48,166 nucleotides of DNA from Planctomycetaceae bacterium (GTDB taxonomy: Bacteria > Planctomycetota > Planctomycetia > Pirellulales > UBA1268), in contig SXHR01000117.1 in assembly GCA_005773625.1 (NCBI GenBank), positions 1 through 48,166 of the forward strand. Direction: 5' to 3'. A model generated the notes under the pieces. It saw only the letters and a program-made list of their open reading frames with translations, searched no databases and was not told where the DNA came from. Position 1 is the stretch's first letter, and each line of letters starts with the position of its first letter. This document shows, piece by piece, positions 3,006 through 48,166 of this stretch. The position numbers were made by a program, and so were the translations under genes.

Positions 3006-3174
3006 GCGAAAGACTGCTCTGGGGAGTTGATGGAGAACCGTATGACAAAAAAGAGGGCCGGAGGGCGCCTTCACGACGCGCTCCGGCCCTGACAACGTGT
3101 TTGGTTTTCAGACGCTGCTGCCGAGCAGGCCATGGACCCGGGAAACCCTCGGGTTTCCCGCGATCCACGGACGA

Positions 3175-43696: not shown

Positions 43697-45268
43697 ATGC
43701 TTGCCCGTCTTCAGACTTTTTCCCTGGTCGGCATCGAGGCGGTGCCGGTCGATGTGGAAGTCGATGTTTCCGGCGGGGCCCTGCCCGCCACCGTGCTCGT
43801 CGGCATGCCGGACGCCGCGATCCGCGAGAGCACCCACCGGGTCGCGAGGGCGATGGTCAACTCGGGTTTCACCAGGCCCAACGACCGCATCGTCGTCAAT
43901 CTCGCCCCCGCCGCCCTCCCCAAGCAGGCCGCCACGTTCGACCTGCCGATCACGCTGGGGATCCTCGCCGGAAGCGGCCAGTTCTCGTCCGACCGGCTTC
44001 TCGACTATGCGGTCATCGGGGAGTTGTCGCTGGAGGGATCGACCCGCCCGGCTCGCGGCGCACTGTCGATCGCGATCGCCGCGGCGCGGCAGAAATGCGA
44101 ACATTCCCGGGCCGGACGACCGCTGAAGGGCGTGGTGGTGCCGGCCGCCAGCGCGATGGAGGCCGCCGTCGTCCAAGACATCGAGGTGATCCCGGTTTCG
44201 TCGCTGACGGAGGCGGTGCAGTTTTTTGCCGGCAACCTCGAGATCGCCCCCACGCCGGCCCGGGTCTCTGAATGGTTCGACCGCTTCGCCTTCTACGACA
44301 TCGACTTCGCCGATGTCCGCGGCCAGGAGGCCGCGAAGCGGGCGATCTGCGTCGCGGCCGCAGGCAACCACAACTGTTTGATGGTCGGCCCGCCGGGGGG
44401 CGGCAAGACGATGCTGGCGAAGCGGGTGCCCACGATCCTGCCACAGCTTTCGTCGGCCGAGTCGATCGAAACGACGCGGATCTACAGCGCGCTTGGCCTC
44501 ATGCAGCCTGGCCAACCCCTGATGGTCACGAGGCCCTTTCGCGCACCGCACCACACGATCTCCGAAGCCGGGCTCGTCGGCGGCAGATCGATCCCCATGC
44601 CCGGTGAGATCTCGCTCGCCCACAAGGGCGTGTTGTTTCTCGACGAACTTCCGGAGTTCAACCGTCGCACGCTGGAGGTGCTGCGTCAGCCGCTCGAGGA
44701 TGGCGAGGTGACGATCAGCCGGGCGAAATCGACCACCCGTTTTCCTGCCGATTTCATGCTGGTGGCCGCGATGAATCCCTGCCCGTGCGGATACCGCGGC
44801 GAACCGCGACGGACCTGCCAGTGCACCGCGCCTCAGGTGGAAAAATACATGAGCAAGATTTCCGGGCCGCTGCTCGATCGGATCGACATCCACCTGGAGG
44901 TGCCGGCGGTTCCCTTCCGCGAACTCTCGGCCTCACGCTCCGGCACATCGAGCGGCCAGATGCGTGAGGCGGTGCTGGCGGCCCGAATCAGGCAGGCGGA
45001 GCGGTTCGGCGAGGCGGGCGGCGGCACCACCCGGTGCAATGCCCGAATGACGAGCAGGGAGATCCGCCAGTTTTGCCGGACGGAGCCCGCCGCCGCCGAA
45101 TTGCTGCAGGCCGCCGTGGGCGACTTGGGCCTCTCCGCCCGGGCGCACGACAAGGTGCTCCGCGTGGCGCGAACGGTCGCGGACCTGGACGGGGCCGACA
45201 CGATCGCCTGCAGCCACATCAGCGAAGCCATCAACTACCGCCTGCTCGATCGCGGCCTGTGGCAGTGA
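43697..45268 (+). CDS. comM: YifB/ComM family Mg-chelatase-like AAA+ ATPase
   Basis: 'FSLVGIEAVPVDVEVD' Lon-protease-like N-domain, Walker A 'MVGPPGGGKTMLA', 'GVLFLDELPEF', Cys cluster 'NPCPCGYRGEPRRTCQC', 'LSARAHDKVLRVARTVADLDG'. Confidence 0.9.
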   Translation: MLARLQTFSLVGIEAVPVDVEVDVSGGALPATVLVGMPDAAIRESTHRVARAMVNSGFTRPNDRIVVNLAPAALPKQAATFDLPITLGILAGSGQFSSDRLLDYAVIGELSLEGSTRPARGALSIAIAAARQKCEHSRAGRPLKGVVVPAASAMEAAVVQDIEVIPVSSLTEAVQFFAGNLEIAPTPARVSEWFDRFAFYDIDFADVRGQEAAKRAICVAAAGNHNCLMVGPPGGGKTMLAKRVPTILPQLSSAESIETTRIYSALGLMQPGQPLMVTRPFRAPHHTISEAGLVGGRSIPMPGEISLAHKGVLFLDELPEFNRRTLEVLRQPLEDGEVTISRAKSTTRFPADFMLVAAMNPCPCGYRGEPRRTCQCTAPQVEKYMSKISGPLLDRIDIHLEVPAVPFRELSASRSGTSSGQMREAVLAARIRQAERFGEAGGGTTRCNARMTSREIRQFCRTEPAAAELLQAAVGDLGLSARAHDKVLRVARTVADLDGADTIACSHISEAINYRLLDRGLWQ

Positions 45269-45446
45269 TCGCCGCCGATCGTTCGCGATCAGCAGATCGC
45301 GACGTTGGGCGATCCATCAGGATCGACCGTCGCGCCGAATAACGGCCGTGTGAGGGTTCGCGGTCCTTTAAGGCTCCAGTTGAGGGCCTGAGCGAGACGT
45401 CAGGACACCGTGTTGGGGCTACCACACACGGCATCGCCTTGGCACG

Positions 45447-45535
45447 AGCGAACGACTAAGTTGAACAGCTCGCAGCCAACAACCTCACCATACCGCAGGA
45501 CGCTATCGCGATTCTGCTGCATCGCTTGGTTCGGC
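45447..45535 (-). repeat. attC-like site 1 (distal end of array)
   Basis: 89 bp. + strand boxes AGCGAAC ... GTTCGGC. 77 of 89 positions identical to site 3 by hand alignment. Lies 12 nt after the ParE stop. Confidence 0.75.
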
Positions 45536-45547
45536 CTGCTCGGGCTT

Positions 45548-45844
45548 TTACTCTCGACTCTGCCACACAGCAGCGTCACGGTTGCCCTGGACTACGGCCA
45601 TCACCTCCAGACGATCTTCGTGGACACGGTAATAGACGACATAGGTGAAGCGCCGCAGTCGCGCTGCACGCAAATTCCGCCAGATGATGCCATGTAACTC
45701 GGGCATACCTGAAATCCAAAGCAGGACATCTTGAACTTGAATCAAGAAGGCCTGCCCCAAGCCAGGTCGCAGTGCATCGAAGTAACCAATCGCCTCTGCC
45801 GCGTCCTTCGTGGCTTCTGGACGCAGGACGACGGGCAAGCTCAT
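45548..45844 (-). CDS. ParE/RelE-family toxin
   Basis: 'RLRRFTYVVYYRVHEDRLEVMAVVQGNRD' is a typical ParE/RelE C-terminus. The ATG at 45844 overlaps the antitoxin stop (ATGA). Confidence 0.8.
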   Translation of the reverse strand: MSLPVVLRPEATKDAAEAIGYFDALRPGLGQAFLIQVQDVLLWISGMPELHGIIWRNLRAARLRRFTYVVYYRVHEDRLEVMAVVQGNRDAAVWQSRE

Positions 45845-46062
45845 GAACTCCTCGACAATCGCGCCAGCACCGTTTCCCAAGGTTCAGCGGCCCCAGGATT
45901 GGCGTCAGCCGCTGCGATTCGCCGCTCTAGTTCTTGGATATGCCAGTCGGGAGGTGTGTATGGCGCATCGTCGGGAAGGCTGTCCCAGATCAGACCGATC
46001 AACTCCACCCGCTGCTGTGCGTCGAGGCGGTCGATGCCAAATTGCGATAAGGTCAGGCTCAT
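45841..46062 (-). CDS. putative addiction-module antitoxin
   Basis: 'LDAQQRVELIGLIWDSLPDD...WHIQELERRIAAADANPGAAEPWETVLARL' matches the remembered 'addiction module component' pattern. ATG at 46062. Confidence 0.7.
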   Translation of the reverse strand: MSLTLSQFGIDRLDAQQRVELIGLIWDSLPDDAPYTPPDWHIQELERRIAAADANPGAAEPWETVLARLSRSS

Positions 46063-46140
46063 TGACGATGTCCTCCGCAGTTGGAAGCAGCCGCCATTCA
46101 TCATACCGGGCGGCAATCACACGAGGAAGTCAGCGTAGTG

Positions 46141-46229
46141 GCCGAACGGCCCCGATCGATGGCTCGCGACCAAGAGATTATCCACACCGCCGGGCTTCAT
46201 CGCGAGTCCATTGCATCGGGTGGTTCGGC
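46141..46229 (-). repeat. attC-like site 2
   Basis: 89 bp. Boxes GCCGAAC ... GTTCGGC. Inner arms GGCTCGCG / CGCGAG-T-CC. Same subfamily as site 5. Confidence 0.8.
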
Positions 46230-46376
46230 AGGCTCTTACATAAACTCCTGCCACTTCTCTAAGACTGGCTCTAGGAGAACACGGGATTCAGCATCAGACG
46301 CATCTCAGGGTCGCGAAATCCCCGAAAGAAATGCAGCGTCAACCGCTGACGCCAAGTCGCCTGTTGGACTAGCGTG

Positions 46377-46748
46377 TCAGATAGTGCCCCACACCGCTGC
46401 AACGTAGCAGGCCACCTGACACCCTGTCAGCGCGCATCCGATGGTCGAGATGCCAATGCCACATACTCGCTCGCGCACCGCCTTCGTGGTAACTACGGTC
46501 CAGATGCTACCAATGAGAGCCAAGGCAATCGGTAAGGCGATTGCGAGGATCAAAAAGGCAGACTTTTCAGGGATTGGATCTGCGGACAACATAACGATAC
46601 TGAGCGATTGATACAGCAATAGTACGAGGATAACGGGGGCGAGAGTCCTATGGCGACGGAAAACAACGAAGGCGCTGGTGGCCGTAAAAGCAAGTGGTAT
46701 GGCGCCAAAGAAGAGCGCCGGCACCAGGTACATGAGAAGTGTTTCCAT
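46377..46748 (-). CDS. small three/four-TM membrane protein, function unknown (single-gene cassette)
   Basis: ATG at 46748 (METLLMYLVPALFFGAIPLAF...), outside attC site 3. The longer track ORF to 46862 would read through that site. Lower GC than the core genome. Confidence 0.5.
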   Translation of the reverse strand: METLLMYLVPALFFGAIPLAFTATSAFVVFRRHRTLAPVILVLLLYQSLSIVMLSADPIPEKSAFLILAIALPIALALIGSIWTVVTTKAVRERVCGIGISTIGCALTGCQVACYVAAVWGTI

Positions 46749-46786
46749 CTCGGTGCCGTGCTCCAGTTGTCGGGGCTCCGTCGCCC

Positions 46787-46875
46787 GCCGAACGACAAAG
46801 TTGAGCAGCTCGCAGCCAACCCGCTCACCATACCGCAGGATGCTATCGCGAGTCCGCTGCATCGCGTGGTTCTGC
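46787..46875 (-). repeat. attC-like site 3
   Basis: 89 bp. Boxes GCCGAAC ... GTTCTGC. Confidence 0.8.
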
Positions 46876-47053
46876 GTCCCGTGAACCGCAGTCGTCGCTC
46901 CGATGCTCTTTTGGCTCCTCGGAAAGCATTCGGATTATGCGTCGCGCGAGAGACACCTGTGACTGGGTTGCGATACCAATCATGCCTGCCACCGTGCCTC
47001 ACCAACACGCAACCGCTCGCCTCGATTGCCTTGATCAGATCGACACGCTTCAT
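46843..47053 (-). pseudogene. hicA: HicA-family toxin, apparently frame-broken by an internal deletion
   Basis: 'MKRVDLIKAIEASGCVLVRHGGRHDWYRNPVTGV' is a normal HicA N-half. The expected continuation '...LARRIIRMLSEEPK' is present only in the +1 frame. The usual '..PVPRH.EI...' segment between them is missing. The in-frame reading runs through attC site 3 to 46550. Confidence 0.55.
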
Positions 47054-47241
47054 GGCATGACGAGCTCACCAACCTTGCGAGCGCCTGGAATATGTCCGCC
47101 CGACAGATCAAGGTACAGATCCTTCAAGTGCTCGACCAAATCCTGCAAGGTCTCGCCTTGCGTCCAGTAATCCGGATATTCCTCAAGGTAGCCAAGCCAC
47201 CAGTTGTCTTCTTGCCAGTGAACGTACTTAACCGAGTGCAT
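47050..47241 (-). CDS. hicB: HicB-like antitoxin (short form)
   Basis: 'WWLGYLEEYPDYWTQGETLQDLVEHLKDLYLDL'. The stop overlaps the hicA ATG (ATGA). ATG at 47241. Confidence 0.7.
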   Translation of the reverse strand: MHSVKYVHWQEDNWWLGYLEEYPDYWTQGETLQDLVEHLKDLYLDLSGGHIPGARKVGELVMP

Positions 47242-47351
47242 GAGACACCTCACCAAACGCCGCGACGGAGATCACTGTCACGTCAAGTCTACCGCGGCGG
47301 TCGCGTCGAAGGCCAACCGCGCGCCTACGGCGAAGCCGAGGTGTATTTCAC

Positions 47352-47441
47352 GCAGAACGACGGCATTGAGCCGCTCGCAGCCAACCAGCCCAGCTACACC
47401 GCAGGGCGCCACCGCGAGTCGGCTCCAATGCTTGGTTAGCC
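47352..47441 (-). repeat. attC-like site 4
   Basis: 90 bp. Boxes GCAGAAC ... GTTAGCC. The MazF stop codon (TAA, 47436..47438) lies inside the GGCTAAC box on the minus strand. Confidence 0.8.
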
Positions 47442-47771
47442 GCTTTGTGGCTGACCCGGAAGGACAAGCAGCATCACGACGCGACTTTCCACGAGACCCA
47501 ACAGCTCGTCCGAAAGATCGCCAAGCTTTCGCATTAGCTTAACGGTTGGAAACGTTCCAATGCCTTGCACATCGAACGCGCCATTCTTCAACCACCCAAC
47601 ATTCGTTGGAATCTCAAACCGTGTTCCCCGCACGCTTGTTGTGTGGGGAATGACCGTTGTCAATGCACGTTCATCATCGAGCACAGGACCGCTGAGAACC
47701 AGAGCCGGACGCACCTTCGCGGCGTAGCCCATATCTACGAGCCAGACCTCACCCCTTTTCGGCTTCGCCAT
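47436..47771 (-). CDS. MazF/PemK-family toxin
   Basis: 'KRGEVWLVDMGYAAKVRPALVLS...TVIPHTTSVRGTRFEIP'. ATG at 47771. Confidence 0.8.
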   Translation of the reverse strand: MAKPKRGEVWLVDMGYAAKVRPALVLSGPVLDDERALTTVIPHTTSVRGTRFEIPTNVGWLKNGAFDVQGIGTFPTVKLMRKLGDLSDELLGLVESRVVMLLVLPGQPQSG

Positions 47772-47952
47772 GGCCGGCCTCCTCGGCGTCATACATGGCG
47801 AAGACTGATTCACCAGCCGCCGTCAGTTCCTCATCTGAGAGCGGACCGGCGTTTGCCTCAGAGATTCGAGCCAACTCCAGAAGCACCGCGTGCTGCTCGC
47901 CACGCGACAAGGCGGAGAATGTGTGGATCAGTTCGACGGCGACGTCGCTCAT
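47749..47952 (-). CDS. putative antitoxin of the MazF-like toxin
   Basis: 67-aa acidic protein directly upstream of the toxin, overlapping its start by 23 nt. Family not recognised. Confidence 0.5.
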   Translation of the reverse strand: MSDVAVELIHTFSALSRGEQHAVLLELARISEANAGPLSDEELTAAGESVFAMYDAEEAGHGEAEKG

Positions 47953-48021
47953 GGATTAGTCCTCGTGAACATCGTTATACCCCACACGGTGACGGCACGC
48001 ACTCGGAGCCCGCTTTCACGC

Positions 48022-48111
48022 GGCTAACGGCAAAGATCAAAGGCTCGCGGCCCTCGGGTCTGCAACCACGCGCGGCGATGCCCGCGAGTCCTTTGCATCG
48101 TGTGGTTAGCC
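48022..48111 (-). repeat. attC-like site 5 (belongs to a cassette continuing beyond the window)
   Basis: 90 bp. Boxes GGCTAAC ... GTTAGCC. Inner arms GGCTCGCGG / CCGCGAG-T-CC. Confidence 0.8.
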
Positions 48112-48166
48112 CTTGAGGATCCACCGTGGCAGGGGAATTGCGTTGCTTCTTGCGGCTATCAAAAGC

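Follow-up and report, generated by a model that had tools for sequence, protein, structure and literature searches.

The window analysed here, 48,166 nucleotides of contig SXHR01000117.1 from a Planctomycetaceae bacterium of the Pirellulales, ends in a stretch, from 45447 to 48166, in which five imperfect palindromes alternate with small genes. An earlier note on this DNA had read the palindromes as the attC recombination sites of an integron gene-cassette array with no integrase in view. We hold with high confidence that the stretch is indeed such an array and the five repeats its attC sites, because they show the geometry of attC sites, are recognized by a covariance model trained on class 1 integrons, have boxes that are complementary from cassette to cassette, differ between strains by whole cassettes that break between the AA and the C of the AAC box (AA/C below), and belong to a family that adjoins IntI integrases in relatives. 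We further consider it probable that a complete sedentary chromosomal integron is present, of which the array forms the distal end. The alternative that the earlier note had set beside this, an integrase-less cluster, proved to be the right counterpart, and the odds have only shifted toward the first of the two.

The repeats, their cassettes and the flank

The palindromes lie at 45447-45535, 46141-46229, 46787-46875, 47352-47441 and 48022-48111 (sites 1 to 5, from the most distal inward), and both their lengths of 89-90 nucleotides and their start-to-start spacings of 694, 646, 565 and 670 are as first recorded. On the + strand all five open with a 7-mer ending in AAC and close with one beginning in GTT: the boxes are AGCGAAC/GTTCGGC at site 1, GCCGAAC/GTTCGGC at site 2, GCCGAAC/GTTCTGC at site 3, GCAGAAC/GTTAGCC at site 4 and the self-complementary GGCTAAC/GTTAGCC at site 5. 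As had been noted, at all four junctions the 7-mer that closes one site is exactly reverse-complementary to the one that opens the next (GTTCGGC to GCCGAAC twice, GTTCTGC to GCAGAAC and GTTAGCC to GGCTAAC). The boxes within a site fail to match at the hybrid sites 3 and 4, as described earlier, but that list was incomplete, for those of site 1 do not match either. A division into two subfamilies (1, 3 and 4 versus 2 and 5) holds for sites 1 and 3, which are 86.5% identical; however, site 4 is intermediate (70-71%), and sites 2 and 5, at only 65.6%, are no closer than the remaining pairs (58-66%), the five sites as a whole spanning 58-87% pairwise identity. A 25-nucleotide motif from the right arm, allowing up to three mismatches, occurs four times, always within the array, against an expectation of 0, and neither this search nor a covariance model of the sites finds any copy of the repeat in the window from 1 to 45446. 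A scan of the whole window with Rfam yielded no family at its gathering threshold, which is uninformative because Rfam holds no attC model.

Four complete cassettes lie between the sites: one with a toxin-antitoxin pair of the ParE type, one with a small membrane protein, one with a HicAB module whose toxin is broken, and one with a pair of the MazF/PemK type. A fifth begins at the window edge. Every plausible gene of the array in the list of open reading frames (ORFs) lies on the minus strand. The genes thus share one orientation, as had been stated, and their strand corrects the wording of the earlier note while being compatible with its junction coordinates. Two other of its observations also held up: no ORF in the stretch exceeds 183 amino acids, and GC content falls, being 0.58 in the array versus 0.63-0.74 across the other 45 kb. 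For comparison we used six same-species contigs from other assemblies, which encode an identical ComM and show about 99% DNA identity to the window.

Cassette 1 (694 bp, 45453-46146) reads, on the minus strand as in all the others, from an Unstab_antitox antitoxin (45841-46062; PF09720, 5.7e-14) into a ParE-family toxin (45548-45844; PF05016, 4.6e-5) and then attC 1, the genes being as called in the same-species contig L011. Cassette 2 (646 bp, 46147-46792) holds a predicted hydrophobic protein of 123 residues taken from the ORF list (46377-46748), followed by attC 2. In cassette 3 (565 bp, 46793-47357) a 63-aa ORF (47050-47241), which only its position marks as HicB-like, precedes what is left of a frameshifted HicA toxin gene (about 46880-47053), and attC 3 closes the unit; the HicA remnant matches PF07927 at 2.4e-5, which is under the curated cutoff, over residues 5-41 only. 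Relative to the homologous cassettes in contigs L078, L063, L033 and L107 this gene lacks about 38 nucleotides, a deletion also seen in the same-species contigs L011 and L014, and the 63-aa ORF upstream of it is intact. Cassette 4 (670 bp, 47358-48027) encodes a putative antitoxin of 67 residues (47749-47952) and a PemK/MazF toxin (47436-47771; PF02452, 2.3e-10), followed by attC 4. Of cassette 5 only the 3' end is present (48028-48166), namely attC 5 and 55 nucleotides, where the window cuts an array that continues toward the expected attI/intI side; in L011 and L012, of the same species, further cassettes and attC sites indeed follow beyond this position. The 123-aa hydrophobic, 63-aa HicB-like and 67-aa ORFs have no match in Pfam or NCBIfam. 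Nevertheless, the description of the cargo as mostly uncharacterized does not stand, since three of the four cassettes are recognizable as toxin-antitoxin modules. Such cassettes would be expected to stabilize the array, and its distal cassettes to depend on promoters of their own; a scan for sigma-70 promoters was uninformative, with one match versus 1.1 expected.

The chromosomal flank at the distal end, outside the element, is a comM/YifB-type gene for a Mg-chelatase-like ATPase (43697-45268, + strand; PF01078 at 1e-94), which is convergent with the array and forms an identical junction with it in six independent assemblies. From the comM stop to site 1 the DNA is non-coding (45327-45446); taken together with that site, it is 76% similar to a contig of a Pirellulales metagenome-assembled genome (MAG), L073, and may be either a remnant cassette or a conserved terminus of the array.

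Strand, stem and extrahelical bases

The bottom strand of an attC site, which is the one that folds, is described as carrying an R' box RYYYAAC and an R'' box GTTRRRY, of which AAC and GTT are invariant, with a spacer of 5-6 nucleotides on each arm and a length of 57-141 nucleotides; on the arm opposite AAC, extrahelical bases stand at position 16 (usually G) and 23/24 (a conserved T), separated by a stem of 6 bp (PMC5027507). In the window this bottom strand is the + strand, as follows from the positions of the bulges and the minus-strand direction of the genes. We had also tried to orient the array by the complementarity of the 7-mers, and dropped this because the relation is strand-symmetric and thus cannot orient it.

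Starting at its 3' end, the + strand of the sites shows a 7-nucleotide box, a 5-nucleotide spacer, 3 bp, a bulged C at position 16, 6 bp, a bulged T at position 23 and then the remaining stem, whereas the 5' arm begins with the 7-nucleotide box ending in AAC and a 6-nucleotide spacer. The two single-base bulges thus lie on the 3' arm of the hairpin, as seen in sites 2, 4 and 5, and the published geometry is reproduced in the invariant AAC/GTT (five of five), the spacers of 6 and 5 nucleotides, the bulges at 16 and 23 and the length of 89-90 nucleotides. The folding of the + strand of each site, put forward earlier as a check, bore out the idea for sites 2, 4 and 5, which form clean long hairpins (z of -2 to -3.2, with -3.1 at site 2 and -3.2 at site 5), but not for sites 1 and 3, which do no better than shuffled sequences, site 3 having a poor minimum-energy fold. 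We retained these two as degraded attC sites, since in the alignment their arms are those of the other sites, apart from 2-3 mismatches in the stem (two at site 3).

The architecture is a property of the wider family. Across 39 distinct members the L stem is paired in 94.9% of cells, with compensatory changes at 12 of its 14 pairs, and the covariation score is 0.43 versus 0.15 for shuffles and at most 0.10 for slid registers. Position 16 (column 118 of our alignment A2; 45523, 46217, 46863, 47428 and 48099 in the window) is C in 37 of the 39, and position 23 is T in as many. In contrast, position 16 is G in 12 of 13 class 1 attC sites, the exception being the dfrA14 attC, which has a C within the same ATTGCAT context.

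Mutual recognition with class 1 attC sites

We built three covariance models: R1 from the five window sites, R2 from planctomycete sites only, and R3 solely from 13 class 1 attC sites, as a surrogate for the attC model of IntegronFinder. The class 1 set came from the arrays of seven clinical plasmids (99 kb), in which the sites were mapped by a simple scan for geometry; with identical settings the same scan also selects window sites 2, 4 and 5. A MAFFT alignment of the class 1 sites (A3) had the arms out of register and was set aside in favor of a model-guided one (A5).

The recognition runs in both directions. R2 ranks all 13 mapped class 1 sites above every other position in the 99 kb, on the correct strand. 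Conversely, R3, with E-values from a shortened calibration, finds window sites 5 (47.5 bits, 1.8e-11), 2 (41.1 bits, 1.5e-9), 4 (38.5 bits) and 3 (26.8 bits, 2.4e-5), and nothing besides these four in the 48 kb falls below 0.1; a search with an attC covariance model had been proposed from the start, and its outcome supports the proposed identity. R1, which scores site 1 at 88.2 bits, matches nothing beyond the five sites in the window, while in every related contig practically all neighboring cassettes have a single R1 match between them, which invariably falls on the strand opposite to that of the genes.

How the array would recombine

Read on the minus strand, each cassette consists of its gene or genes followed by its own attC, which is the canonical polarity. 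The bottom strand, here the + strand, would fold into the bulged hairpin, to which the tyrosine recombinase IntI would bind, cleaving between the A and the C of the 5'-AAC-3' box. Recombination between two attC sites would release a cassette as a circle, such that excised cassette 4 would have the circular junction GGCTAA joined to CGACGGCATTG, and recombination between attI and attC would insert a cassette at the integrase-proximal end. Crossover at AA/C would explain why the outer four bases of a left box match the preceding site and not its own partner.

Across 11 arrays, 37 of 53 junctions show a perfect match of these outer four bases with the next site, versus 12 of 70 for the own partner, 1 of 54 for the previous site and 9.7% of random pairs.

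Variation between strains and sharing between genomes

The earlier note had pointed to presence/absence polymorphism exactly at the AA/C junctions as a mark of cassette exchange, and this is what the same-species contigs display. They differ from the window by whole cassettes, with breakpoints at 47356-47359 and 46145-46148 (window versus L011, L012, L013 and L016), and both mapped crossovers are confined to the 4-nucleotide interval AACG. L011, L012 and L013 follow the window up to GCAGAACG (47359) and have a different attC thereafter; in L012, one extra cassette intervenes before the hairpin of window site 4 resumes with GGCTAAC replacing GCAGAAC. L016 departs from the window just after the AAC box of site 2. 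At one site its crossover box reads GCCGTAC rather than GCCGAAC (L016:7048-7054), a point mutation which should disable that site. The three distal cassettes keep their order in most strains.

The array of L011 has at least 10 attC sites, extends for more than 7.6 kb and is unfinished where its contig ends. It is interrupted at L011:16473-17653 by an insertion sequence (IS) of the IS3 family (HTH_Tnp_1 + rve), past which the attC sites continue. The arms of site 5 are identical to those of its counterpart in L012, the seven substitutions all falling in the loop (window 48059-48075), and the two sequences diverge completely right after 48111; near-identical attC sites are thus borne by different cassettes.

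What the window has in common with genomes of other species goes no further than single cassettes: for instance, 47355-48029 matches contig L026 at 93.6%, which is exactly cassette 4. In the assembly collection, 513 blocks list the 67-aa protein of that cassette, with at least five different neighborhoods among them, and the cassette recurs in at least five neighborhoods other than the present one. Single cassettes 84-96% identical to those of the window or L012 also stand on contigs binned as Synechococcus, Kuenenia and Chitinophagaceae (L075, L087, L033 and L082), which may reflect either the mis-binning of repeat-rich contigs or exchange across phyla.

Integrases next to the same family of sites

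As first reported, there is no integrase in view: phmmer, with an IntI1 query 100% identical to the annotated IntI1 of the plasmid collection, finds no IntI-like ORF in the whole window. Relatives were sought by scanning species-representative genomes for the attC motif, which led mostly to MAGs of Planctomycetota (Pirellulales, Planctomycetia, Planctomycetaceae and Kuenenia). Four of these, from GTDB (L017, L124, L096 and L079), have ORFs scoring 419-443 bits on TIGR02249 (cutoff 265), which are 49% identical to IntI1, align without gaps through the IntI-specific ALERKYP...WxWxWVF region and adjoin R1 matches of 58-99 bits. A contig from JGI (L144) has the same layout, with a tblastn match to IntI and R2 matches of 87-97 bits. 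In all five the 3' end of intI faces the array, on the same strand as the cassette genes, and in L017 the attI junction, GCCTAAC (3085-3091) at the end of the first cassette, lies 280 bp beyond the intI stop. Given the polarity of the array and the side and strand of intI in these relatives, an intI belonging to the present array would be predicted to lie past 48166, on its right, encoded on the minus strand and co-directional with the cassettes.

Of the JGI loci with relatives of the planctomycete IntI (L144-L223), L144, L167, L152 and L217 have their attC sites downstream of intI and co-directional with it; in L212, L220 and L172 the sites stand upstream, in divergent orientation. Among 80 such loci no cassette is in common with the arrays of the window, L011, L012 or L016, and the 30 nucleotides right of site 5, searched for as exact matches in JGI metagenomes, gave 0 matches. 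In contig L001, a tyrosine recombinase of 647 residues (L001:3-3650), with an AAA ATPase alongside, stands just upstream of an array of over 18 sites, immediately next to the first attC-like one. We rejected it as the IntI of that array, as it has only a 20.8-bit match of the XerA type, and the locus is probably a phage or another mobile element at the edge of the array.

Weighing the alternatives

Several observations weigh against the main reading. First, the window is without an integrase, attI or Pc promoter; no intI occurs in the 45 kb to the left, nor is one reached in the six same-species contigs, every one of which ends inside the array, so that for this genome we infer a complete integron rather than observe intI in cis. 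Second, sites 1 and 3 are degraded and fold poorly. Third, the RYYY/RRRY consensus is only partly followed (e.g. GCCGAAC and GGCTAAC), and the first extrahelical base is C, departing from the usual G. Finally, site 1 fails the class-1-trained R3 (14 bits, E 0.14), and the alignment and structure of R3 were derived through R2, such that the two models share their annotation, besides the shortened calibration of the E-values.

The first two of these, together with the broken toxin gene of cassette 3 and the IS3-family element inside the L011 array, would also be consistent with a cluster of attC sites lacking an integrase (CALIN), that is, a genuine array without intI in cis. The integrase gene might have been lost, a rearrangement or the insertion of an IS might have separated it from the array, or the cassettes might have entered a secondary site; any reshuffling would then be the work, in trans, of an IntI encoded elsewhere in the same genome or in the community. 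By definition a CALIN comprises two or more attC sites, spaced by less than 4 kb, and lacks intI for 4 kb to either side; such clusters are common (Cury et al. 2016, PMC4889954). Within the window the array formally fits this definition, the left side being clear for 45 kb; it is, however, cut at 48166 on the integrase-proximal side. The polarity places intI at the right, and hence the integrase-free 45 kb on the left is uninformative. Moreover, just 6.6% of CALINs exceed 10 sites, as compared to the at least 10 of the still unfinished L011 array; the strain-level turnover at AA/C implies a recently active IntI; and relatives with the same family of attC sites carry intI in cis. On balance, we regard a CALIN as rather unlikely. 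A more elaborate version, in which the comM-adjacent array would be an integrase-less cluster reshuffled in situ by IntI in trans, within a Planctomycetota-wide class of C16 attC sites that co-evolved with co-directional integrases and with cassettes crossing phyla, is a speculation to which we give still less weight.

Another possibility is that of a fossil array, wherein the sites are true attC sites at which recombination has ceased, and the differences between strains stem from homologous recombination between similar hairpins. The mismatched stems of sites 1 and 3, the GCCGTAC that replaces an AAC box in L016 and the order of the three distal cassettes, conserved in most strains, are in line with such a scenario. 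However, both breakpoints fall in the 4-nucleotide AACG and not in the longer identical stretches of the hairpins, the hybrid boxes are exactly as exchange at AA/C predicts, and the homology of cassettes to other genomes stops at the same points, which makes a fossil array improbable. Lastly, that the repeats are repetitive extragenic palindromic (REP) or bacterial interspersed mosaic elements, palindromes akin to miniature inverted-repeat transposable elements (MITEs) or transcription terminators, unconnected to integrons, is effectively refuted: while they are intergenic hairpins downstream of genes, and the region has seven terminator-like matches versus 2.6 expected, the copies scattered singly in the manner of a REP or MITE that the earlier note had considered are absent from the other 45 kb, no T-tract follows the hairpins, the bulge positions are fixed and conserved, the boxes are complementary cassette by cassette, the class 1 model recognizes the sites and the family adjoins IntI in relatives.

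Place among known integrons

As the probable distal end of a sedentary chromosomal integron, the array resembles systems such as the superintegron of Vibrio cholerae in being chromosomal, in its small cassettes of like orientation, each followed by an attC, in the relatedness of the attC sites within the array, in the interspersed toxin-antitoxin cassettes, in a GC content below that of the host chromosome and in its strain-variable content. It differs from that type in that its attC sites are 89-90 nucleotides long with 58-87% pairwise identity, in the C at the first extrahelical base and in that an integrase is not seen. An intI transcribed toward attI and co-directional with the cassettes is the Treponema denticola type (PMC3607928). 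In our material this layout, with the 3' end of intI toward the array and on the cassette strand, is that of the relatives L017, L096, L124, L079 and L144 only; unlike that type, their integrases are planctomycete proteins, 49% identical to IntI1, and metagenomic relatives of IntI show both layouts.

With the class 1 attC sites of aadA, dfrA, blaOXA, aac, arr, ere and lnu, the window sites share 7-nucleotide boxes, spacers of 5-6 nucleotides, a 3-bp L box, the bulge at 16, the 6-bp stem, the AACG at the 5' end and a T bulge at 23 in a G-T-C context, as well as their recognition by each other's covariance models. They differ in a longer central loop (about 35 nucleotides versus 3-60) and in the C at position 16 (1 of 13 in class 1); the cargo, too, is of toxin-antitoxin and unknown genes, with no resistance genes.

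The earlier note had presented chromosomal integrons in planctomycetes as poorly characterized. This overstated the novelty, because genome surveys have already recorded integrons in Planctomycetes (PMC2426708, PMC4889954) and a Planctomycetes-specific attC covariance model is published (PMC8352920). Toxin-antitoxin cassettes in chromosomal integrons are likewise already well known.

Implications

The understanding of how integrons function is unchanged by this array. Its interest is modest, and lies in the turnover at the level of four nucleotides between strains, the C that position 16 has throughout the family, the integrases that run co-directionally with the cassettes in relatives, and the cassettes in bins of other phyla, which may be mis-binned. 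It offers a well-resolved chromosomal integron array outside the Proteobacteria, in which turnover between strains of about 99% identity can be followed in public metagenome assemblies. In terms of uses, it might aid the cataloguing of environmental cassette pools, and sites 2, 4 and 5 could be taken as natural substrates for non-proteobacterial integrases. More generally, the architecture of the clinical class 1 attC sites transfers nearly unchanged to the Planctomycetota, position 16 excepted, and the same toxin-antitoxin cassettes circulate among many genomes of freshwater and groundwater.

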